From IMG/VR virus record IMGVR_UViG_3300037247_000961, positions 30,431 through 94,430 of that record: a stretch of 64,000 nucleotides of DNA; one strand, written 5' to 3'. The notes under the pieces are model-generated. The model worked only from the letters and a program-made list of their open reading frames with translations, was not told the origin of the DNA and did no database searches. This document shows positions 1 through 53,775 of the stretch, in pieces. Positions within the stretch are counted from its first letter, which is position 1; each line of letters opens with the position of its first letter. This stretch comes from a virus. A program made the position numbers and the translations under genes.

Positions 1-435
1 ATCAGCAATTTGAATATCCCTAAAGAATCGTATGGCAGGGAAATTGATTCCAGCTTCCCAAAAATAGTCCAGGTCATAGCTCAAATTCATTCCTACAATG
101 TCACCGTCGAACGTGGCTCCTTGTTCCCGCATGTACCCGAGCACTTGCTCCTTGTCCAAGTTGTCGCCGCCTTCGTGAGCGAAGGGGAGATAGTAGGAAG
201 GCCCATCCTCAATGGCGAAGCTAATGCCCACCATGTAGGCGCCGCGGCGTACCCCAACCCCCAATTCCTTGAGATGGCGGTCGTTGGTTTCACTATCAAT
301 GCCAACGCGCTTTGCGCCCTTCCACGATGGCAAATCGCTCATGGACGGAAGCTTCCAATTGCACTCTGGCTCAATCAAAGGCAACTGCAGAGGCTTAAGC
401 TGCATCCCAATGCGGCCATCGAGGACGTCAGGCAT
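1..435 (-). CDS. polA: Family A DNA polymerase, N-terminal 3'-5' exonuclease part (runs off the window edge; absent from the ORF track)
   Basis: Manual translation from ATG at 435: MPDVLDGRIGMQLKPLQLPL...KRVGIDSETND (ExoI DxE)...YYLPFAHEGGDNLD...VGMNLSYDLDY (ExoII NxxYD)...RDIQIAD; open to base 1. Confidence 0.85.
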   Translation of the reverse strand, partial: MPDVLDGRIGMQLKPLQLPLIEPECNWKLPSMSDLPSWKGAKRVGIDSETNDRHLKELGVGVRRGAYMVGISFAIEDGPSYYLPFAHEGGDNLDKEQVLGYMREQGATFDGDIVGMNLSYDLDYFWEAGINFPAIRFFRDIQIAD

Positions 436-451
436 AATGGTTCCTCTCGGG

Positions 452-940
452 TTATGCGTCCACAATGCGAATAGATCGAGGTTGATCCGGCGTGTAAGTG
501 ATAAAACCACGCTCAGTCAGACGTCTGACGAAATTAGTGACGCATCCCACGTATTTTAATCCAAGACCCTTGGCAATCTCAGCGTAACTTGGCGAATAGC
601 CATTGATATTCCGGTAATTGATAATGAATGCTAGGGCCTTCTTTTGTCGTTTCGTAATTCCACCGTTCCGTCGCGAATCAGGATGGCGCATATCATAGGC
701 CATCCTGGAGCACTCAATGCAGTAGTTAGTTGAAACCGTCCGCTTCGCCATATGACCATACAAGCAAGGATCACCGGTAGAATACTGCTTCAATCCACGG
801 TCGCGGGCCTCTTTCCGGCAAGTTGCCGCACGCTTCCGATGGTCACGGGCTTCCTTCCAACGATTTAACTCATGTTTTTGATGCACTTTCTTTATGTTGG
901 TTAGCCCTTGGGCGTATTCGACGGAAGTGTTTTTGCTCAT
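452..940 (-). CDS. Zn-ribbon plus LexA-type winged-helix DNA-binding protein, no peptidase domain
   Basis: YSTGDPCLYGH..R....YCIEC motif, then TKRQKKALAFIINY...GYSPSYAEIAKGLG...LTERGFI....PRSIRI, the LexA N-terminal domain pattern. Confidence 0.75.
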   Translation of the reverse strand: MSKNTSVEYAQGLTNIKKVHQKHELNRWKEARDHRKRAATCRKEARDRGLKQYSTGDPCLYGHMAKRTVSTNYCIECSRMAYDMRHPDSRRNGGITKRQKKALAFIINYRNINGYSPSYAEIAKGLGLKYVGCVTNFVRRLTERGFITYTPDQPRSIRIVDA

Positions 941-1454: not shown

Positions 1455-1635
1455 GAGATTCCATCTCCTTGATAATACTCAATTCGGCCTCTCTAATTGC
1501 CTTAGCAACACGGCGCTCAACTTCACCATAGATCGGAGGCATTAGTTGATGCAACGCCGCTCGGGCACGGTCAATCGGGTCCATACGCTTGTCGCTTAGT
1601 GGACTCTCCCACCAGCGTTCGGCCCCTTCTGTCAT
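1447..1635 (-). CDS. hypothetical protein
   Basis: Operon-like packing. Confidence 0.55.
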   Translation of the reverse strand: MTEGAERWWESPLSDKRMDPIDRARAALHQLMPPIYGEVERRVAKAIREAELSIIKEMESRG

Positions 1636-2045
1636 ATGCCGGCGCTATCATCATTGATCAAAGATTGAATCGCCGCGCGGCAACCAAACAAGTCTTCAAC
1701 ACACGACCAACGAGAAATCACGGTTACCGCAAACTCCTCCGTTTTGTCCAAGTCCTGCATGACACTGAAATACTGTATATCGCTAAGCGATGCACATCCC
1801 TTGGGTACGCGGCGATGGTTCTTGTGCAAATCGATCAACTTATCCACAAAATGGATTGCTTTCTCCAAGTCCATCATGCCGTTGCCCTTATCGCGCCATC
1901 GGCACATATACTTGATGATGCACATTTCCAGCCCACCAAGGCCATGCTTTTCCGTAAAATCCCAGACCTGATACCCCGCTAGATAATGATCCCCGCCAAT
2001 TTGCATAGCGTTTGGATTGGCCCCGCGCCCTTCATCCTGGCTCAT
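1632..2045 (-). CDS. DUF3310 family protein
   Basis: QIGGDHY...IKYMCRWRDKGN..DLEKAIHF signature. Confidence 0.8.
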   Translation of the reverse strand: MSQDEGRGANPNAMQIGGDHYLAGYQVWDFTEKHGLGGLEMCIIKYMCRWRDKGNGMMDLEKAIHFVDKLIDLHKNHRRVPKGCASLSDIQYFSVMQDLDKTEEFAVTVISRWSCVEDLFGCRAAIQSLINDDSAGI

Positions 2046-2059
2046 TGATGGACTCCTGG

Positions 2060-2593
2060 TTAGTTCCGGTTTTCAGGCAGCCGCGTCCATTTGTACTTGG
2101 CATAAAACTTGATGCACGGCTCGGGAAAGTTCAAAGCTCGACGCTCAATGGATTGTGTTAAGTATAGCAGACTTTTTTCACAATGTCGATTCCCAAATGC
2201 AATTTGCTCCTGGCACCACACCCAAGACTCCAGAAGATCGATGGCGTTAAGCCAGTGGAAATCTTCATCCGTGAGAGATTCAAATCCTTCATACATCCCC
2301 CACGTTTGAAGCGCAGCCATGTTGGCTTGATCGTAGGCTTCAAAAAGAGATTCATGGTACTGAGGCGCAGGCCGCGGCATATCGCCAACCCATCGCTCAG
2401 CTCCATCGTGCCAAAGCAAAGCCTTGATCAAAGGGACTGAGGGACTTGGGTGCAAGACGAGCAACATGCTCACTGCGTCATAGCTATGCTTGCCCACGGT
2501 GTATTCGCCCATGTGGGGCACGACATGGAACCGCCGAACGTTGCCGGCTTCCCTGGTAGCCTTGACGCGGTCTACCTCGCTAAGTTCGATCAT
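2060..2593 (-). CDS. HD-domain deoxynucleotide phosphohydrolase (YfbR-like)
   Basis: VRRFH...TVGKHS...ALLWHDGAERWVGDMP...AIDLLE; adjacent to the TS homologue. Confidence 0.8.
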   Translation of the reverse strand: MIELSEVDRVKATREAGNVRRFHVVPHMGEYTVGKHSYDAVSMLLVLHPSPSVPLIKALLWHDGAERWVGDMPRPAPQYHESLFEAYDQANMAALQTWGMYEGFESLTDEDFHWLNAIDLLESWVWCQEQIAFGNRHCEKSLLYLTQSIERRALNFPEPCIKFYAKYKWTRLPENRN

Positions 2594-3602
2594 CGATTCT
2601 CCTTAAAAGCCATTCGTTCGCGGCACCTTGCCAATCGGAGGCCCGTACTAGTGATACAGTATCCAGCGCCTTTCGGGCGCCGTCCATATTGAGGCCGGCT
2701 GTCGATTTGTATTGATCCCAAACTTGCCACATGGGCGCCGCCACGTGCCGGAAGAAAGGATCACGCATTCCCATGACCGGCCCTTCATCGAGGAACATGG
2801 ACAACTCTCCAAGCCAGGCATCCGAATCGATGGTCGCAATAGGGACAAGGACCGCTAGAGGAGGATAAGGATTGCTTGGAGGAAGCTTGTGAAATGAGTT
2901 CTTGATTAAATCCAATACCTTGGTTTCCGCCCCAAGGCAATTGGCTACAATTGTCATGCGCCCAATAGGGACACTGATCGCCTTAGCAATGAACTCTTGC
3001 ATCATGGAAAACACGATAGCGTCCAGACGCATGTCGAAGATATCGGCGTCCCTGTATACCACCATCATATCCAACCGTTGAGCGTGGTTGATGCTTAGAT
3101 ATAGATGCGTCGCTGCAGGTAGATTCCGGCTTGTACTGCCGAAGTCCTCCCCAGCATCCCACAACGAGATCACTGCAGCCTTGTGCCCAGGGTTGTTACG
3201 GAGCATATGAACCACGGATTTCAGTTGATCAATAGTGCCAGCCTGGTAATCCATGCCAGGATCGAAGTGCGCCCGCATGCGTTGTCCATATGCCCCATGA
3301 AGTATCTTACCATCATCACTCGTGCCCCCTTGATAGCCATCGAACTTAGCCAGAAACGTAACGTCATTGCGGCCACCGAGCACCCATAGACTTGTGAACA
3401 GTGCGACGAACGGATTCAGGTCATACTCAGTCCCACGTGACAATCGCTCCATGGGCTCCGTCATCATGAGGGCCACGGGACTGGTTATCTCGGTCATGTG
3501 CCTCTTGGGCTGTCCCTCATCGAAAAGCAATTCCAGACCCTGGGGTATGACCTCGTGCATGTTGCGGCCATAGATCATTTGCATTATTGACGCTCCTTCC
3601 AT
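2580..3602 (-). CDS. Thymidylate synthase / dNMP hydroxymethylase family protein with a degenerate active site
   Basis: NPF....W.L.GRND, SDDG....GAYG.R.R, DQL, AVISLWD motifs; PAAT in place of PCxx and RDAD in place of RSxD. Confidence 0.8.
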   Translation of the reverse strand: MEGASIMQMIYGRNMHEVIPQGLELLFDEGQPKRHMTEITSPVALMMTEPMERLSRGTEYDLNPFVALFTSLWVLGGRNDVTFLAKFDGYQGGTSDDGKILHGAYGQRMRAHFDPGMDYQAGTIDQLKSVVHMLRNNPGHKAAVISLWDAGEDFGSTSRNLPAATHLYLSINHAQRLDMMVVYRDADIFDMRLDAIVFSMMQEFIAKAISVPIGRMTIVANCLGAETKVLDLIKNSFHKLPPSNPYPPLAVLVPIATIDSDAWLGELSMFLDEGPVMGMRDPFFRHVAAPMWQVWDQYKSTAGLNMDGARKALDTVSLVRASDWQGAANEWLLRRIDDRT

Positions 3603-3893: not shown

Positions 3894-4152
3894 TGGAACT
3901 TCCTACCTCAAGCTGCCCATGCTCGACCAACTCCGCGCGGATGATGTCGCGCAGTTCCAATAGGTGCGCCAGTTGCTCGCGCTCGTTATCGGCAAACTCG
4001 AAGCCATCCTTGCCTGCCCATGCTTTTCGTTCCCAGTCATGCATCGAGGCGATCTTGTTCAACACGCGCTCGTATGCCAAGCGGCGATGGACGGCGCGGA
4101 CGCCGTCCATGTGCTTTTGATGAATCAACATGCGGTCGGATAGCTTTGTCAT
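3886..4152 (-). CDS. hypothetical protein
   Basis: ORF in operon. Confidence 0.6.
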   Translation of the reverse strand: MTKLSDRMLIHQKHMDGVRAVHRRLAYERVLNKIASMHDWERKAWAGKDGFEFADNEREQLAHLLELRDIIRAELVEHGQLEVGSSNG

Positions 4153-4724
4153 GAAGCGATCTGGTACACGTTGCCACGGCCCTCGACCCGGCTCTTGGTC
4201 ACCGGCAAGCCAAGGCGCTTCTTCACATCCCGACTGATGGCCCCGCGTGCCGTGTGATTAAGCCAGTTCAATGCCTCGGCAATCTCCTTGATCGATGCGC
4301 CCTCGGGCCGCTTGAGCAAGGCGATAAGAGCCGCTTGCTTAGAGCCGTCACGCACCTTGCTCTTAGGCTCCTTACCCAAGGGCGCCAAAGGCTCCTTGCC
4401 GGTGGTAGGCACCACCGGCGCTGCCCCCGGTACTGGTTCCGGCATAGGCAGGCCTTTCATCGAGTCCGGCAGATCGTCGTTGAACTCCTCCATATCGTCG
4501 AAGGCGACATCGTACTTGAGCAGCAAGTCGATCACTGCTTTGATGCCCTTGGCCTTGTTCTGGAACATCTTGATGCGACGGCCCAAATCCAAATTGGAAA
4601 CGAGAAGGTTGCGCAACTCGACCAGCTTCTCCGCGGCCAAAGTGTCCAGAAAGATAGCATCTTCTGGGGCACCCACGCTGCCCTCAACGATGTACTTCTT
4701 ACCTAAGAATTCGACGGTTTTCAT
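4149..4724 (-). CDS. DUF3489-domain winged-helix protein
   Basis: C-terminal RDGSKQAALIALLKRPEGASIKEI...W..HT.RGAIS..KKRLGL; SD AAGGAG before ATG 4724. Confidence 0.75.
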   Translation of the reverse strand: MKTVEFLGKKYIVEGSVGAPEDAIFLDTLAAEKLVELRNLLVSNLDLGRRIKMFQNKAKGIKAVIDLLLKYDVAFDDMEEFNDDLPDSMKGLPMPEPVPGAAPVVPTTGKEPLAPLGKEPKSKVRDGSKQAALIALLKRPEGASIKEIAEALNWLNHTARGAISRDVKKRLGLPVTKSRVEGRGNVYQIAS

Positions 4725-4770
4725 GGCTTCTGCTCCTTGACCAGAAAGGGTTGAATCAATGATGTTATCC

Positions 4771-4799
4771 ATTATCCCATCGCCATCAAGAAATGTCAA
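4771..4799 (-). promoter_or_regulatory. sigma70-type promoter TTGACA-N17-GATAAT
   Basis: Near-consensus hexamers with a 17-nt spacer upstream of the DUF3489/TS/HD/polA run. Confidence 0.7.
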
Positions 4800-4822
4800 C
4801 ACCTTATTTTAAGGTGAAATCT

Positions 4823-5053
4823 TCACCTTCCCGGACAAATTTCAAATTCGCCTAATTGCATGCCGGCCTTACACCAACGAGCCCAATCGAGCATGGACTG
4901 GCGTTCGTCATATGCCAACCGTCCCCGCTTCCAACTCAGGTCCGTAAACTGCCTAATGATCTGCGTATCATTTTCCTCGGCAAACAGGATTCCATGATAG
5001 GCCAGCGTAACCCCTATGATGATAACTGACGCAGCTTGACTCATCAATCGCAT
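4823..5053 (-). CDS. hypothetical protein
   Basis: Short ORF with hydrophobic N-terminus following the RNR gene. Confidence 0.45.
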   Translation of the reverse strand: MRLMSQAASVIIIGVTLAYHGILFAEENDTQIIRQFTDLSWKRGRLAYDERQSMLDWARWCKAGMQLGEFEICPGR

Positions 5054-6861
5054 TCTTTGCGCCCCGTAACTTCATCGATGTGGCACATGGTGGTTGCCAC
5101 CAAGTCCGTTGGGCTGGGCAACGAATCATCCCCTTTCACAGTAAAAATGCCAGTGCGCATCCCGTCAATGCGAAATGTGGTCAACCCCTTTGCCCCACGG
5201 CGCCAGGCCTCGGTGTACAGTTCCTTGAACTCATCCCACTTCACAGAGCCAGGTACATTGCAAGTTTTAGATACGGCACTGTCAATGTGGGTTTGCGCCG
5301 TACAAAGGACGTCAAGATGCTCTTGTACCGTAACGAACTCGCTGATCTTGCCGCGAACCCCAAACACGCGAAGGCCATAATCTTCAACGTCCTCGTGAAT
5401 AACTCCCTCCGCCGTATTGATCTCACGATTAAAGGAATAGGCAAAAACTGGCTCCAAGCCACTCGACACGTTGTCAGCACAAAGGCTAATTGTGCCAGTT
5501 GGCGCAATGCTTGTGAGATGGCTATTGCGAATGCCGTAGCGCGCAATCCCTTCCCGGACATCATCGTCGAGCGTAGCTATAAATGCGCCCGACAAATATG
5601 AATCTTTGTCAAATAGCTTAAATGACCCTTTCTCACGGGCTAAATCAATCGATGCCAAATAGCATTCCCGAGTTAGCCGTTGCAGAATCATGTTTTCCAA
5701 TCGAAGGAAATCCGGCGAACCATAGCCACCTGGAATCATGGCCTCGATACAGTTGGCCATTCCAGTTACACCAATCCCCATACGACGCTTCCTCTGGGCT
5801 TCCTTCTTTTGTTCATATGTAGGATATTTGGCCTGGTCAATCACATTATCCATGGCACGGACGACACAGGGAATGTCTTTACCAAAACGATCCCAATCGA
5901 ATATGCGACGCATCCCTTCCGTCTTGACATATTTGACAAGATTCATGCTGCCCAAGAGGCAAGCACCGTGAGGCGGAAGTGGTTGCTCAGCACAGGGATT
6001 CGTCGCCGCGATTTTTTCGCAATACCATAAATTATTCATGCGATTGATCGTATCAATGAACAACACCCCAGGTTCACCCCAATCCCAGGTTGAACGCATG
6101 ACCATTTCCCAAAGCGCACATGGATCGATGTGGCGGTATACCCGACCATCAAACCGCAACGGGAAGGGTTTGCCCTCGGCAAGACACTCCATGAACTCAT
6201 CAGTCACCGCAATGGACATATTGAACGCGGTTAAAGGCAATGTTTTTTGCAGCGCCTTCCATGCCCGCAGGCGGACGTTGGGGTCTTTGATCTGTTCAAC
6301 CAACTCCCAAAGCACGCGCTGCTCTGGCGACGGGTGCTTGGCATTGATAAACATTTCGATGTCCGGGTGATCAATTCTCAGAACTGCCATTTGTGCGCCG
6401 CGTCTATGGCCGGCGGAGGCAATCGTCTTACACAGGCTGTTATGGATCGACATGAATGAGACTGGCCCAGACGCATAAGTATGCTGTGTTCTGATCAAAT
6501 CCTTATAAGGACGCAACGTTGAAAAGTCGTAACCAATACCCCCTCCCATGCGCATCGTCGCCGCAGCCTCGGCCAACCGACCCATGATGGAACCGTTGCC
6601 ATCGACCATGCTGTCCTCGATAATGCCAGACACAAAACAATTGTATGGTGTCACTTCCCAAAGCGCGCCAACTGCGGCCTGTATTCGACCAGCGGGGAGG
6701 AAGAATTGATTGAGAAGGAGTTGGCTAAAATGTTTAAAATGGTCGTCGTCGTCTTTGAGCGCGGCGGCAACTCGGTAGCCATAATCCCGAAACGTCTCTT
6801 GTGGTCCACGGTACTTTTCACCGTGCATAGCATCACTGAATGCGAGTTGTGGGCCTTGCAT
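5044..6861 (-). CDS. nrdJ: Class II (adenosylcobalamin-dependent) ribonucleotide reductase
   Basis: FLPAGRI, NCFV, GGGIGYDFS, RRGAQM, TNPCAEQPL, CLLGS, IAPTGTIS, DSAVSKT; no beta-subunit gene in the window. Confidence 0.9.
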   Translation of the reverse strand: MQGPQLAFSDAMHGEKYRGPQETFRDYGYRVAAALKDDDDHFKHFSQLLLNQFFLPAGRIQAAVGALWEVTPYNCFVSGIIEDSMVDGNGSIMGRLAEAAATMRMGGGIGYDFSTLRPYKDLIRTQHTYASGPVSFMSIHNSLCKTIASAGHRRGAQMAVLRIDHPDIEMFINAKHPSPEQRVLWELVEQIKDPNVRLRAWKALQKTLPLTAFNMSIAVTDEFMECLAEGKPFPLRFDGRVYRHIDPCALWEMVMRSTWDWGEPGVLFIDTINRMNNLWYCEKIAATNPCAEQPLPPHGACLLGSMNLVKYVKTEGMRRIFDWDRFGKDIPCVVRAMDNVIDQAKYPTYEQKKEAQRKRRMGIGVTGMANCIEAMIPGGYGSPDFLRLENMILQRLTRECYLASIDLAREKGSFKLFDKDSYLSGAFIATLDDDVREGIARYGIRNSHLTSIAPTGTISLCADNVSSGLEPVFAYSFNREINTAEGVIHEDVEDYGLRVFGVRGKISEFVTVQEHLDVLCTAQTHIDSAVSKTCNVPGSVKWDEFKELYTEAWRRGAKGLTTFRIDGMRTGIFTVKGDDSLPSPTDLVATTMCHIDEVTGRKECD

Positions 6862-7149: not shown

Positions 7150-7225
7150 TGGTAGCGGGGGCCGGATTCGAACCGGCGACCTTCAGAATATGAATCTGAC
7201 GAGCTACCAACTGCTCTACCCCGCA
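7150..7225 (-). tRNA. tRNA-Met(CAT), initiator-like body
   Basis: TGCGGGG TA GAGC AGTTGGTA GCTC G TCAGA TTCATAT TCTGA AGGTC GCCGG TTCGAAT CCGGC CCCCGCT A CCA; full cloverleaf with encoded CCA. Confidence 0.92.
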
Positions 7226-7569
7226 TTAAAATGGTCTTTCCAATGTTCTTTCCGATGGCAATTTGAGCATAACACTTCACATTTTGCAATCTCTTTCAAG
7301 ATTCTAGCCCACGAGATGTCTCGGATCATTTTGCCAGAAATTCCAAATTCCTTCTTGCTTGGGTCTAAATGATGAAAGTCTAAACAAGCGGGATGATCTT
7401 CTGGGCAACGATTGCAAGATAATTGAGCCTTCAATTCTTTAAATCGAATAATCCTCTTTCGTTTATTTTCTGTAGTCCTTGCTCGATGCACCTTCTTATT
7501 TTTTGGATACCAAATCTCCCTCATGTATTTTGCATGGTACTCTTTACGTTTGATAGGGTCTTTAATCAT
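7216..7569 (-). CDS. HNH endonuclease
   Basis: CNRC...CLDFHHLDP..KEF...EIAKCEVLCSNCHRKEH. Confidence 0.85.
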   Translation of the reverse strand: MIKDPIKRKEYHAKYMREIWYPKNKKVHRARTTENKRKRIIRFKELKAQLSCNRCPEDHPACLDFHHLDPSKKEFGISGKMIRDISWARILKEIAKCEVLCSNCHRKEHWKDHFNAG

Positions 7570-10020: not shown

Positions 10021-10893
10021 CTAGAACGGCGCGTCTTCTCCGTCACCCCCGTCTGCCGCGGGGTCTCCTCCCTTGCCTGAGGCGGCATGCTGCGACGCGA
10101 AGTCGGCTTTGGCCATTCCGCTCACGACCATGTCGCGAAAGTCACGGGCCTCGTTCAACAGTTCCTTGTTCTCGACCGGGTTGATGAGGCTTCCCTTCCA
10201 TGTTGCACCGAGCGGATCAATGCGGAAGTTGAAGAAGGTACCGCTGTCATTCTTCTGCTTCACCGTGCGCAGGATTGCACGATTTGCGAACATCGGGGGC
10301 TTGCCCTTCAGCGTGTACATCGCCGTGATCCAGTCCCGATAGGGCTTGATCTTGGTCGACGTGAAGCTCACCACACCGAATCCGACCGTCGAAATACCGT
10401 CCTCGTCCAGGAAGAGCCCATAGACGTAGAAGGTTTGGACCAAGTCGTTCATTGCGCCAGACTTTGCATCCGACCGCGAGTCGGGGCAATGCAACTTGCC
10501 GAAAGGCTTGCCGTCATTGTCCTCAATGGCCTTTTCGACCACATCGCCGTTGGGATCGTGCATGCCAACCATGCCGCCGCCAGCGTCACGCGGCACCCAC
10601 TCCACATAGACCTGTTCCTTGTGGACGGGGATGAAGGCGACGCCATCGGCCGTGGGGCCTTCGCCATCCCACATTTGCTTGGTCACGGTATTGAACAACA
10701 TGCCACTTTCGGCGCCGACTGGATCTTTGTCGACGACCTGGGGGCTGTTGCTTTGCAGGATGGCCAGGAACGGCACGGACAGGTCTTTGCTCTGCGTGCC
10801 TTCGAAGCCGGCACCCGAGTCATCACCATAATCATAACTCGTGGCTGGAACGCCCGCGGGTGTGGCCACAGCCACCTCTTTCGATTCACTCAT
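10021..10893 (-). CDS. putative single-stranded DNA-binding protein
   Basis: DLSVPFLAILQSNSPQV, YVEWVPRD..GG motif; acidic tail ending GDGEDAPF; replication module position. Confidence 0.65.
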   Translation of the reverse strand: MSESKEVAVATPAGVPATSYDYGDDSGAGFEGTQSKDLSVPFLAILQSNSPQVVDKDPVGAESGMLFNTVTKQMWDGEGPTADGVAFIPVHKEQVYVEWVPRDAGGGMVGMHDPNGDVVEKAIEDNDGKPFGKLHCPDSRSDAKSGAMNDLVQTFYVYGLFLDEDGISTVGFGVVSFTSTKIKPYRDWITAMYTLKGKPPMFANRAILRTVKQKNDSGTFFNFRIDPLGATWKGSLINPVENKELLNEARDFRDMVVSGMAKADFASQHAASGKGGDPAADGGDGEDAPF

Positions 10894-11138: not shown

Positions 11139-11351
11139 TTATGTGACCGGCTCCTTATGACACCTCGGCGCATGTAGAATATCAGACCAATTCCACAGTC
11201 CAGTTGTATGCTCATCTGGCGCAGGCTCTATCACATGGAGCATCTGGGATAAGTGATAATGCAATCGATCATCGATGTAACTATCACAATCTCTCGGCTC
11301 AGACTTTGCACCGCAGACTAACGTCCCGTCGCATCGCCATCTAAGGCTCAC
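11139..11351 (-). CDS. hypothetical protein
   Basis: ATGA overlap with the upstream gene. Confidence 0.5.
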   Translation of the reverse strand: MSLRWRCDGTLVCGAKSEPRDCDSYIDDRLHYHLSQMLHVIEPAPDEHTTGLWNWSDILHAPRCHKEPVT

Positions 11352-11917
11352 GCCTTCACCTTAACATCGGTGAAGCGTTGACGATAGGCGCCGAAGGTAT
11401 CCAGCGGAATTGCAATGCCATCCGCAAGCGCCCCTTTGATGAAGGCGCGAAGGGTGTTGGTGTGAACGCCACGCACCAATTTGAGATTGAGAGGCTTCTT
11501 GCGCTGCGCACAGTCCCGCATGAACTTACGTGCCCAAGCCTCTTGGTCCTTATTGAAGTCGATGGTCACTGTGCGCTTGATCAGATTGGCGTTGCCATTG
11601 TCCTCAAGCCAGGCATGAGCCTTTTCCTCATTGCCCTTGGGGATGGACCCACGAATCACTTCCTTGAGATTGATAATGATGCCACCGGGGGTGATCACCT
11701 TGGACTTGTCAAGCTGGGCCTCCTCCAAAAGGTTCGGCAACTTGGTTTCCTTAACCAACGTCACCGCGGCCTTAGCCTCGCCCAATTGGGCCTCCAGCGC
11801 AGAAACACGAGCCTCCGCATCAAGCTGCTCTTGGGCAAGGCCTTCGATCCGGCTCATCAAATTGCCGCCGGGCTCGTTAGTCTCCCAAGCACTGTAATCG
11901 TGTTCTTTGTCCATCAT
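11348..11917 (-). CDS. conserved phage replication-module protein
   Basis: Coiled coil then AHAWLEDNG..LIK...VHTNTLRAF; typical neighbour of the SSB-like gene. Confidence 0.65.
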   Translation of the reverse strand: MMDKEHDYSAWETNEPGGNLMSRIEGLAQEQLDAEARVSALEAQLGEAKAAVTLVKETKLPNLLEEAQLDKSKVITPGGIIINLKEVIRGSIPKGNEEKAHAWLEDNGNANLIKRTVTIDFNKDQEAWARKFMRDCAQRKKPLNLKLVRGVHTNTLRAFIKGALADGIAIPLDTFGAYRQRFTDVKVKA

Positions 11918-11933
11918 CGATGCTCCCTTCCCG

Positions 11934-12287
11934 TTAAATAATGTTAGCTTCGTCCCTCGCCATGTCCTCAAGATGAGCCTGCAAGGCCTCTGGGATATCG
12001 TCCCACGTGATGCCATCTGGGCCAATCACTTCCAAGTCCTCGACCTCGCCGCCCTCTGCCGGGTAGCCAGGATCGCCATTGCTCAAATACCAGACTGCCG
12101 GATAGTAATCCGTGATCTTGGCGCTTACATCAAGCATCAACGTCGGATAGTTGCCGTCCGCATCGGGCTTAAGCAACTCATACTCATATTCAAAATTGAC
12201 GTCGGTTCCACGGATCACTGAATCGCTCCTCAAGCCATGATCAAGTTTAAACAGTGTGGCGTCAAAAGTCAATTCATTTAAATCCAT
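11934..12287 (-). CDS. hypothetical acidic protein
   Basis: GDPGYPAEGGE motif; overlaps the helicase end. Confidence 0.6.
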   Translation of the reverse strand: MDLNELTFDATLFKLDHGLRSDSVIRGTDVNFEYEYELLKPDADGNYPTLMLDVSAKITDYYPAVWYLSNGDPGYPAEGGEVEDLEVIGPDGITWDDIPEALQAHLEDMARDEANII

Positions 12288-47352: not shown

Positions 47353-48002
47353 TACACAAAGTGCCTTGGCACCTGTCCCACATAAATGGATAACGGTTCG
47401 ATCACCGTGAATCCATCCGGGGCGATCTGAGATCCTGCTGGTACATCCACGACCACTGTACCCTGTACGGCAGCCGCGAAACTGCCATTGCTATCCTCCG
47501 CCCAGGCCTTGGCGGCACCGAAGGTATCGGAGGATGCCACAGCCCGCGCAAGTTCTTGGCCGTTGCCCCACATACGCACGCGACCATCTCCGGGCCGTAT
47601 GGCAACGACCAAATCCATCAACAGCCCAACAGGCAACTCGACGGTATTGTCAAAGAGTGCTGTGGCCCCGTTAACCGTTCCATCTTCACCGGCATGGAAG
47701 CCAATAGTCTGATCACCGACCCACAAGGCGGCACCGATATCAGCACCGCTAAACTCAAACACCAGGCCTTTATGGACCCCGGCATTGGCTGTAATCTCAA
47801 TGGCTGTACGGAATGTGATCGGAGACGTCCGTGAAGGGAAGATGGCACCTGTATCAATGTCCGCGACGGCCATAACGGTGCCACCGAAGATTTGATGCGT
47901 GCGGAACATCTCCGGGATACCAGCCAAAGACTGGCGCCGCCGGACGGCATGGTGGAAAACGACCCGACCTAAACCGTCATCCTGATGCTGTGCAAGGTGC
48001 AT
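47352..48002 (-). CDS. virion-like protein
   Basis: Beta-rich; follows the conserved head-region gene. Confidence 0.6.
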   Translation of the reverse strand: MHLAQHQDDGLGRVVFHHAVRRRQSLAGIPEMFRTHQIFGGTVMAVADIDTGAIFPSRTSPITFRTAIEITANAGVHKGLVFEFSGADIGAALWVGDQTIGFHAGEDGTVNGATALFDNTVELPVGLLMDLVVAIRPGDGRVRMWGNGQELARAVASSDTFGAAKAWAEDSNGSFAAAVQGTVVVDVPAGSQIAPDGFTVIEPLSIYVGQVPRHFV

Positions 48003-48011
48003 GATGCACGC

Positions 48012-48794
48012 TTACCCCCGATGCTGGGGCCTCTGAGTACCACGCGGAGGCTTGCGGCCTAGGAAGGCTTTATCGATAGGCGAACGCACCTCCAGCATCT
48101 TTGCAACGTCACTGGGTTTAGCGCCGGAATTACCCATGAACTTACTGGCGCGCATGGCACGGTTATAACGCAGCTTATTCTGCATCGCGATATAGTCCCG
48201 AATGCCAGCCGTGGCAGCATGAGGATTGGCAACGGTAAGGGCGTCGATCTTTGAGCATATCTCGTTGACCTTATCGCTGGAAATCTTCATCGCCTTGTCC
48301 GCGGCCTCTTTCACGCGGTCAGCATCGAGCATGGCTTCTTCATGAACCGCAAGTGAAGCCTGAAGGGCCTGCATCTCGGTCAATACCGGCGCTACGGCCT
48401 TTTCCGGGGCCTGTGTGGCGATCTCGGGAGCGACTGGTGTCACCGTAACCGTTTCACCTTGAGTCGCCTCCATGGCCACGACATCCGGTTCTACGGCATC
48501 GACCATCACATCGAATTCGCCGCCGGCCTGGACGTCTATTACCGCCTCGGAGGCTTCGGGGGCTTGTTCGGACTCGGAAAGTGCTTCGACATCATTGTCC
48601 TCCGTTGAATCGATGGCCTTGTACTCTTGGACCGATGCACGTGAGAAATCGGGCGCGGCATTGGTGACCTGTGTCCGGGACAAATCCGGCATCTGGGTCA
48701 ATTTCTGCAACACGTCCATACGAGGCATGCCATCGCCGGTCCAATGACTGTCATTGGCAGGGTCCAGCTTTGCCAGGGCTTCTTTGATATTCAT
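48012..48794 (-). CDS. conserved head-region protein
   Basis: IKEALAKLDPANDSHWT.DG.P...R..VTNAAP.FSR N-terminus; RSPID.A..RK C-terminus. Confidence 0.7.
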   Translation of the reverse strand: MNIKEALAKLDPANDSHWTGDGMPRMDVLQKLTQMPDLSRTQVTNAAPDFSRASVQEYKAIDSTEDNDVEALSESEQAPEASEAVIDVQAGGEFDVMVDAVEPDVVAMEATQGETVTVTPVAPEIATQAPEKAVAPVLTEMQALQASLAVHEEAMLDADRVKEAADKAMKISSDKVNEICSKIDALTVANPHAATAGIRDYIAMQNKLRYNRAMRASKFMGNSGAKPSDVAKMLEVRSPIDKAFLGRKPPRGTQRPQHRG

Positions 48795-53700: not shown

Positions 53701-53775
53701 TGGTGCCGCGCCGAGGAATCGAACCCCGATCTGCCTCCTTACAAGGGAGGGCTCTGCCTGTTGAGCTAACGCGGC
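53701..53775 (-). tRNA. tRNA-Thr(TGT)
   Basis: Acceptor stem GCCGCGT/GCGCGGC, D arm GCTC AACAGGCA GAGC, anticodon loop CTTGTAA, T arm CGGGG TTCGATT CCTCG, 3' ACCA. Confidence 0.9.

Follow-up and report, generated by a model that had tools for sequence, protein, structure and literature searches.

The window analyzed here comprises 64,000 nt of DNA, positions 30,431-94,430 of record IMGVR_UViG_3300037247_000961, and stems from an uncultured phage whose genome of 94,430 bp has direct terminal repeats and was rated complete. On its minus strand, at 2580..3584, lies a gene of 334 codons plus stop for a protein of the MilA/M6 type with the fold of thymidylate synthase (TS; ThyA), in which the catalytic residues are missing. 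The longest open reading frame (ORF), at 2580..3602 on the minus strand, encodes 340 aa and is intact, as stated in the original prediction; the start was corrected to the ATG at 3584 as the likely one, because GGAG is found 8 nt upstream and because the database copy and the relatives begin at the same ATG. Residue numbers refer to the 334-aa form. The gene belongs to a module in which a RecD-like helicase gene lies ahead of it and in which it is followed by an HD hydrolase gene, a DUF3310 gene, small ORFs, and genes for a family-A DNA polymerase, a DNA methylase, a dCMP-family deaminase and a primase. This order is shared with the phages M6, CN1, and Sonora, and the homology to the M6/YuA dUMP hydroxymethylase claimed earlier was borne out at ~35% identity.

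The protein matched Pfam family PF00303 with an E value of 3e-9 and 36.8 bits, above the cut-off of 24.3, and PHROG 5131 ("thymidylate synthase") with an E value of 1e-60 over residues 7-338 of the 340-aa ORF, the C-terminal helical domain included. An AlphaFold2 model built from 41 sequences reached a predicted local distance difference test score (pLDDT) of 90.4 and a predicted template modeling score (pTM) of 0.91. Its top match among solved structures was MilA, aligned along the entire chain with the C-terminal helical domain (TM score 0.72-0.78), followed by canonical thymidylate synthases, which matched in the core only and showed less than 20% identity in the structural matches; MilA and TS chains were retrieved at a probability of 1.0. 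On these profiles and the predicted model, the protein is assigned to the ThyA-superfamily fold and to its extended M6/MilA-type subfamily (PHROG 5131). The C-terminal helical domain (2583..2828, minus strand), common to M6-like proteins and MilA, contains a long run around F-L-D-E-G-P-V that is invariant in the clade formed by the protein and its Cys-less relatives. Specific to this clade is an insert of ~10-16 aa after R-x-H-F (3231..3263, minus strand), which varies in length and sequence and was modeled with lower confidence. None of the thymidylate-synthase equivalogs of NCBIfam reached its cut-off; the best, TIGR03283, scored 44.7 bits against 174.55, and the others fell further below.

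In ThyA-fold enzymes, Cys146 attacks C6 of the pyrimidine. This cysteine is kept by every experimentally defined phage branch of the superfamily, i.e. by the dTMP, 5-hydroxymethyl-dUMP (5-hmdUMP), 5-hmdCMP, and 5-hodCMP synthases (PMC13326640). The window protein was aligned with the M6/YuA, Sonora, and CN1 proteins and with E. coli ThyA, whose numbering is used for the catalytic positions; readings of the pocket derive from this alignment and not from model coordinates. Residues were tallied in 25 Cys-less clade members (the window protein plus 24 relatives) and in 173 Cys-containing members of the family. All features of the protein given below are on the minus strand. Positions 3105-3125 read AAT CTA CCT GCA GCG ACG CAT, which translates as N-L-P-A-A-T-H; this motif, and Y-R-D-A-D at 3042-3056, had been quoted correctly. 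Aligned on L-P-C-N of M6, Sonora, and CN1, the former nucleophile loop is P156-A157-A158-T159 (3108..3119), and Cys146, part of P-C-N in these relatives, corresponds to Ala157 (GCA, 3114-3116), in agreement with the proposed exchange of the catalytic cysteine for alanine. Alignment by HMMER with L. casei TS shifted the register by one residue and placed the cysteine on the second Ala; in neither register is there a cysteine. As GCA and TGY differ at all three bases, one base-call error cannot account for the loss. In the 25 clade members, the position is occupied by Ala, Ser, Arg, Pro, Glu, Phe, Thr, or Lys. The assignment as Cys-less also withstood a check for another active-site cysteine, since no cysteine is conserved anywhere in the clade and, beyond one variable site, no column of the clade alignment is Cys in even a third of the members. 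C216, the only cysteine of the window protein, was considered as an alternative nucleophile and rejected because it is not conserved (7 of 22 relatives).

Beyond what the original prediction had named, the losses extend to most of the substrate-binding residues. Equivalents of E58, Y94, R126, R127, C146, R166, S167, D169, H207, and Y209 are each kept in at least 164 of the 173 Cys-containing members, whereas the positions of E58, R126/127, S167, H207, and Y209 are variable in the clade. Glu58 of the acid/base network, which is Glu in 171 of the 173 members, is replaced by T64 (3393..3395) and by T, H, N, K, S, or Y across the clade. Of the 5'-phosphate clamp (Arg21, Arg126', Arg127', Arg166), only Arg166 is kept (23 of 25): the S-R-N-G stretch that forms the Arg21 phosphate-binding loop of Cys-containing relatives is removed by a 4-residue deletion (3501..3506), and K135-A136 (3177..3182) stand at the variable positions of Arg126/Arg127. 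His207 and Tyr209, the binders of the deoxyribose 3'-OH, form H-A-Y in the relatives (His in 173 and Tyr in 172 of 173) and are both lost here, where G218-A219-E220 is found (2925..2933); the positions of Gly218 and Glu220 are variable or gapped in the clade. The loop after Asp169, part of the folate site, is 2 residues shorter. Mostly retained are the equivalents of Tyr94, Arg166, and Asp169.

The stretch Y177-R178-D179-A180-D181 (3042..3056) is equivalent to Q165-R166-S167-C168-D169; its Tyr is fixed in the clade and its Arg occurs in 23 of 25 members. The exchange of Ser167, a substrate contact, for Asp was correctly predicted for the window protein (Asp179) but does not characterize the clade, in which the position is variable. 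An Asp at the pyrimidine-specificity position Asn177, which had been suspected, was found as D188 (3021..3023) and is invariant in the clade. In the 173 Cys-containing members, this position is Asn 163 times and Asp 10 times (examples are P0074, P0105, P0165, and P0169), and the alignment suggests that these 10 are dCMP-directed enzymes. The invariant Asp of the Cys-less clade may have been inherited rather than gained, given that some of the Asp-bearing members are placed close to the clade in the tree. The clade shows no variation at A158, T159, Y177 (Q165 position), and D188 (N177 position) and hardly any at N154 (L143 position); most Cys-containing relatives likewise have Thr at the T159 position. 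Canonical turnover of nucleoside monophosphates is not credible in a protein that lacks the nucleophile, Glu58, both sugar binders, and three of the four arginines that bind the phosphate. On none of the catalytic features tested does the protein, as read from the alignment, qualify as a thymidylate synthase or pyrimidine 5-hydroxymethylase.

A search of 5.8 billion proteins yielded 22 close relatives with 48-72% identity, all of them metagenomic, after which identity dropped to ~38%, the level of the first M6-like proteins. When 1.84 billion representatives were searched with a profile, the deeper members P0056 and P0057 were added and the wider family proved to be large, with 896 representatives at E <= 1e-30. 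In a quick maximum-likelihood tree with midpoint root, the 24 sampled clade members fell on one branch (support of 98 in the Shimodaira-Hasegawa-like approximate likelihood ratio test), nested among Cys-containing sequences and set off by a long stem (0.39 + 0.56 substitutions per site). Because the other Cys-less representatives (P0078/P0082, P0083, and P0064) lie elsewhere in the tree or form a weakly supported sister, the cysteine was probably lost more than once in the family. The loops of these four sequences collectively read P-A-T, P-H-E, P-H-D, and P-T-T, and P0078 keeps Glu58, Arg-Arg, Ser167, Asp169, His207, and Tyr209 and looks like an early stage of loss. Close relatives were not found in viral contigs of IMG/VR, where searches with the protein and with the profile of the clade matched nothing but ThyA genes of ~24% identity, in GTDB genomes, or among cultured phages (best match 36%); megablast of 20 kb retrieved no related sequence, and scans of viral contigs with P0056 and P0064 gave no match. 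The residue pattern is shared by 24 sequences on separate metagenome contigs, which excludes chance and an assembly error, the latter having been named as a possible source of the missing cysteine.

Sixteen metagenome loci (L017-L032, from SDBS, SDBT, and SDBV records) carry the gene; one of them, L030, is M6-like, and four have 10-kb flanks. Approximate pairwise ratios of nonsynonymous to synonymous substitution rates (dN/dS; Nei-Gojobori method, less saturated pairs with dS 0.7-1.5) were 0.16-0.28 for the ThyA-fold gene, ~0.05 for the polymerase and ribonucleotide reductase (RNR) genes, 0.10 for the HD gene, and 0.19 for the DUF3310 gene. Within the ThyA-fold gene, dN/dS was lowest at the former active-site strands (residues 150-200; 0.04-0.13 in most pairs), 0.13-0.29 in the C-terminal domain, and near neutral in the linker 231-252. 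More than 20 diverged sequences on different contigs have the ORF intact and at constant length. As evident from these ratios and from the intact ORFs across the clade, the gene is under purifying selection, and the neutral decay considered at the outset did not take place (dN/dS ~0.2). It evolves faster than its neighbors, though: on the relatives' contigs, amino acid identity to the window is 51-67% for the ThyA-fold protein, compared with 81-87% for the DNA polymerase, 83-88% for RNR, 76-86% for the RecD-like helicase, 76-90% for the deaminase, 64-81% for the HD hydrolase, and 60-71% for the DUF3310 protein. Taken together, the residue losses and the purifying selection make the protein a putative pseudoenzyme.

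Downstream comes the HD phosphohydrolase gene (2060..2593, minus strand), which is orthologous to M6 gp59 and shares 14 nt with the ThyA-fold gene at the stop of the latter; the HD product resembles YfbR below the threshold of the family (PF12917, 19.5 versus 25.9 bits). The DUF3310 gene (1632..2045, minus strand), an orthologue of M6 gp61 labeled "nucleotide kinase" in PHROGs and GenBank, always comes after the ThyA-fold gene in the relatives. At two loci, L020 and L026, it follows the ThyA-fold gene directly and the HD hydrolase gene is absent; thus, the HD protein is not an obligatory partner. The module continues with the 5' part of the family-A DNA polymerase gene (1..510, minus strand; 689 aa, continuing upstream of the window) and, outside the window, with a dCMP-deaminase-family gene with intact HAE and PCxxC motifs (genome 27157-27603). 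The complete genome contained only one match to PF00303 and no ThyX (PF02511), dUTPase, or uracil-DNA glycosylase (UDG). This refuted the idea that the protein is the partner of an active paralogue encoded elsewhere in the genome.

The slot between the RecD-like helicase gene and the ThyA-fold gene is filled by genes for an RNR of 605 aa (5044..6861, minus strand; large-subunit barrel, E 1e-98) and a DUF3489 protein (4149-4802, minus strand); in M6 and Sonora, hypermodification genes are found there. Typed by Pfam, the upstream stretch of these two phages holds ADDT (PF18724), HMUDK (PF18748), HMUDK_hel (PF18723), and Nmad5 (PF18757) together with a pyridoxal phosphate (PLP) enzyme and a radical S-adenosylmethionine (SAM) enzyme. 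The kit reportedly belongs to a system of thymidine hypermodification based on 5-hydroxymethyldeoxyuridine (5-hmdU), which Lee and co-workers are said to have described in 2018 and 2021. In the complete genome studied here, PF18748, PF18723, PF18724, and PF18757 gave no match at E <= 0.1, and tblastn with the kit proteins of M6 and Sonora returned chance-level matches only, so that the check for 5-hmdU kinase and transferase genes called for by the original prediction found the kit absent. The highest candidate pairing, Sonora ADDT with an ORF of the structural module at 47598-48071 of the window (genome 78028-78501; 27% over 206 aa, E 0.005), was discarded as probable chance similarity, because the ORF has no Pfam support and the genome no PF18724 match. 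In a comparison of loci whose upstream flank spans 4 kb or more, a kit gene, usually that for the kinase helical-domain protein, was present at 26 of 27 Cys-containing loci but neither at any of 5 Cys-less loci nor in the complete genome (Fisher p = 6e-6, a value that does not stand for repeated evidence because the Cys-less loci form one clade and reflect a single correlated loss).

We consider it somewhat probable, at about 55%, that the protein is a relic of a hydroxymethylase that survived the loss of the hypermodification pathway in a non-catalytic role. The ancestor would have been an M6/YuA-MilA-type 5-hydroxymethylase of a phage, acting on a pyrimidine nucleotide (dUMP or dCMP). Its machinery of covalent catalysis and its binding site for nucleoside monophosphates would have been lost, leaving a folded, probably dimeric, non-catalytic protein, and in this phage lineage the entire kit for 5-hmdU DNA hypermodification would have gone with them. 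The remaining genes of the ancestral precursor module, for the HD phosphohydrolase, the DUF3310 protein as a putative nucleotide kinase, the deaminase of the dCMP family, and the DNA polymerase, would have been kept and co-transcribed with the ThyA-fold gene. Turnover of dUMP or dCMP with methylene-tetrahydrofolate would be abolished, and the protein may serve a structural, regulatory, or ligand-binding role in the nucleotide and replication module of the phage. The core of the original prediction, a pseudoenzyme or an enzyme of Cys-independent chemistry, fits this evidence once the option of an active paralogue is removed. Two further roles it had offered were weakened: binding of a nucleotide or folate, by the loss or variability of the phosphate-contacting, sugar-contacting, and part of the folate-contacting positions, and inhibition of host ThyA, by an identity to canonical ThyA of less than 20%.

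Several observations weigh against the hydroxymethylase relic. Positions of the former pocket (A158, T159, Y177, D188, and N154) are fixed to new or retained residues, and the lowest dN/dS in the pocket region could mean that a ligand or substrate is still bound. Many pairs are also near saturation of dS, which makes the dN/dS values approximate. In MilA, the strands equivalent to the constrained ones form the dimer interface, and the C-terminal domain is remote from the active site, its truncation rendering the protein insoluble (PMC5175136). Because the constrained strands are the dimer interface in both MilA and TS, the constraint fits a folded dimer as well as a ligand pocket.

The same observations invoke the idea of a repurposed enzyme, whose remodeled pocket would accept another substrate without the usual contacts to a 5'-phosphate and 3'-OH and act by chemistry free of a cysteine adduct; this substrate could be a base, a nucleoside, or a DNA-borne base. 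We regard such an enzyme as unlikely, although it fares best among the alternatives. The five pocket residues are (nearly) invariant in a clade that is otherwise ~50% identical, R178 is retained, and selection is strongest at residues 150-200. Cofactor and chemistry have been switched once already in the ThyA superfamily, in the flavin-linked 5-hodCMP synthases (PMC13326640), and the probably independent losses of the cysteine in P0078/P0082, P0083, and P0064 point the same way. However, no candidate for an acid/base or a nucleophile was gained, T159 is shared with the majority of the Cys-containing relatives, Glu58 gave way to variable residues, and the loop after D169 was shortened. Moreover, the gene outpaces every adjacent enzyme gene in evolution, and its constrained strands double as the MilA dimer interface.

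Further alternatives start from the neighboring genes. A rather improbable scenario has an M6-like lineage giving up 5-hmdU hypermodification for another state of its DNA, most plausibly deoxyuridine (dU) in place of thymidine (dT), which the deaminase, HD phosphatase, and DUF3310 kinase kept by the phage would make. Control of the thymidylate branch point would then fall to the Cys-less ThyA-fold protein, newly turned into a regulator, an inhibitor, or an enzyme that works without the cysteine. If this were true, the recurrent losses of the cysteine would point to a general second function of the family. Slightly less likely still is a changed nucleotide pool in which deaminase, YfbR-like HD phosphatase, and DUF3310 kinase push dU or some other non-T state into DNA and the dead ThyA-fold protein is an accessory; it might, for instance, block a host enzyme (thymidylate synthase, dUTPase, or uracil glycosylase) or, as a subunit, regulate the HD enzyme or the kinase. 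The roseophage DSS3_VP1, which has dU-DNA, uses a dCMP-deaminase-family Dcd and a YfbR-family HD dTMP phosphatase (PMC12697855), and a candidate counterpart of this pair is encoded here, a deaminase with intact motifs and a strongly constrained YfbR-like HD protein (dN/dS ~0.10). The phage has no dUTPase, UDG, ThyA, or ThyX activity of its own, and its ThyA-fold gene overlaps the HD gene. Nevertheless, the specificities of the HD protein, deaminase, and DUF3310 protein are putative, the HD protein does not reach the PF12917 cut-off, and DSS3_VP1 is absent among the 40 matches listed and the tallied organism names for the HD protein. The two loci that keep the ThyA-fold gene without the HD gene also speak against a changed pool. 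Poisoning of a host enzyme by heterodimer formation is unlikely at less than 20% identity to cellular ThyA, no uracil-glycosylase inhibitor was identified, and dUTPase and UDG are missing from most small phages too.

That the protein works as a thymidylate synthase or hydroxymethylase with another nucleophile is very improbable. Its fold is intact, Tyr94, Arg166, and Asp169 are mostly kept, and the phage has no other dTMP source of its own, but no conserved Cys, Ser, or other nucleophile was found at or near the site, where the clade has A, S, R, P, E, F, T, or K. Furthermore, Glu58, the Arg21 loop, Arg126/127, Ser167, His207, and Tyr209 are all lost, and the NCBIfam models remain far under their cut-offs. 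A decaying pseudogene or an artefact of assembly or annotation can be practically dismissed: the gene is the fastest-evolving large gene of the module with a nearly neutral linker, but the length-conserved ORF, the dN/dS of ~0.2, the independent contigs, the pLDDT of 90, and the conserved ribosome-binding site and HD-gene overlap rule it out.

Other features of the genome were recorded alongside. The replication module contains three N6_N4-type DNA methyltransferase genes, with positions outside the window at genome 22481-24045 and 27600-28889; one gene of this type sits between the polymerase and the deaminase genes. Just upstream of the polymerase gene in the order of transcription, 452-940 (minus strand) encodes a LexA DNA-binding domain (PF01726, E 4e-11) within a protein of 162 aa. 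Genes for tRNA-Met (CAT) and tRNA-Thr (TGT) lie at 7150-7225 and 53701-53775, respectively, both on the minus strand; the former overlaps the 3' end of a 117-aa ORF (7216-7569), a candidate HNH endonuclease judging by its Cys/His pattern. Between the SNF2 helicase and the RecD-like helicase genes, two minus-strand genes resemble Pam3 gp34 (10021-10893; PF23977, E 2e-54) and Pam3 gp33 (11348-12025; DUF7307), and both are 73-88% conserved in the relatives.

ThyA-superfamily enzymes are the entry point to nearly all known pyrimidine hypermodifications of phages. A full-text literature search, outside of which most subscription journals lie, found no description of a Cys-less or pseudoenzyme homologue of thymidylate synthase in phages. 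A clade that is under selection without the cysteine, Glu58, the phosphate clamp, and the sugar binders would be either a viral pseudoenzyme of the ThyA superfamily or a hidden new activity. For annotation, the label "thymidylate synthase" on such genes would wrongly predict T-modified DNA or autonomous synthesis of dTMP; the residue signature together with the presence or absence of a 5-hmdU DNA kinase gene tells the two cases apart. The lineage also offers a natural experiment on the fate of a precursor pathway once a DNA-modification system is lost, which is of interest for research on both phage DNA modification and pseudoenzymes.

Dead copies of oligomeric enzymes retained under selection are known from the AdoMetDC prozyme of trypanosomatids and the dead paralogue of deoxyhypusine synthase; these pair with an active paralogue, whereas the genome studied here encodes none. 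The dCMP hydroxymethylase gp42 of T4 and the 5-hodCMP synthases of RB69 and DLP3 are likewise phage members of the ThyA superfamily with Asp at the specificity position; their substrates are mononucleotides, at a stage before the DNA is hypermodified (PMC13326640). Unlike the window protein, these enzymes retain Cys146 and the residues that bind the nucleotide, have no long C-terminal domain, and come with transferases. MilA, the CMP 5-hydroxymethylase of mildiomycin biosynthesis (PDB 5b6d, 5jnh, 5jp9, and 5b6e), is the best structural match at 16-19% sequence identity, shares the C-terminal five-helix domain, and also has Asp at the Asn177 position, but it is an active enzyme with Cys155, Glu68, His216, and Tyr218 (PMC5175136), which the window protein lacks. 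The M6-type proteins keep the S-R-N-G loop, Glu58, Arg-Arg, P-C-N, R-S-x-D, Asn177, and H-x-Y, of which the window protein has only Arg166 and Asp169, and their genes adjoin those for HMUDK, ADDT, Nmad5, PLP, and radical-SAM proteins, all of which are missing from the phage studied here. Full-length identity, including the C-terminal helical domain, is nonetheless 34-36% to the dUMP hydroxymethyltransferase of M6/YuA and its relatives in the Mesyanzhinovviridae (M6 gp58, Sonora gp44, and the CN1 protein); these proteins of the Pseudomonas phage M6/YuA, the Stenotrophomonas phage Sonora, and the Bordetella phage CN1 are the nearest cultured relatives.

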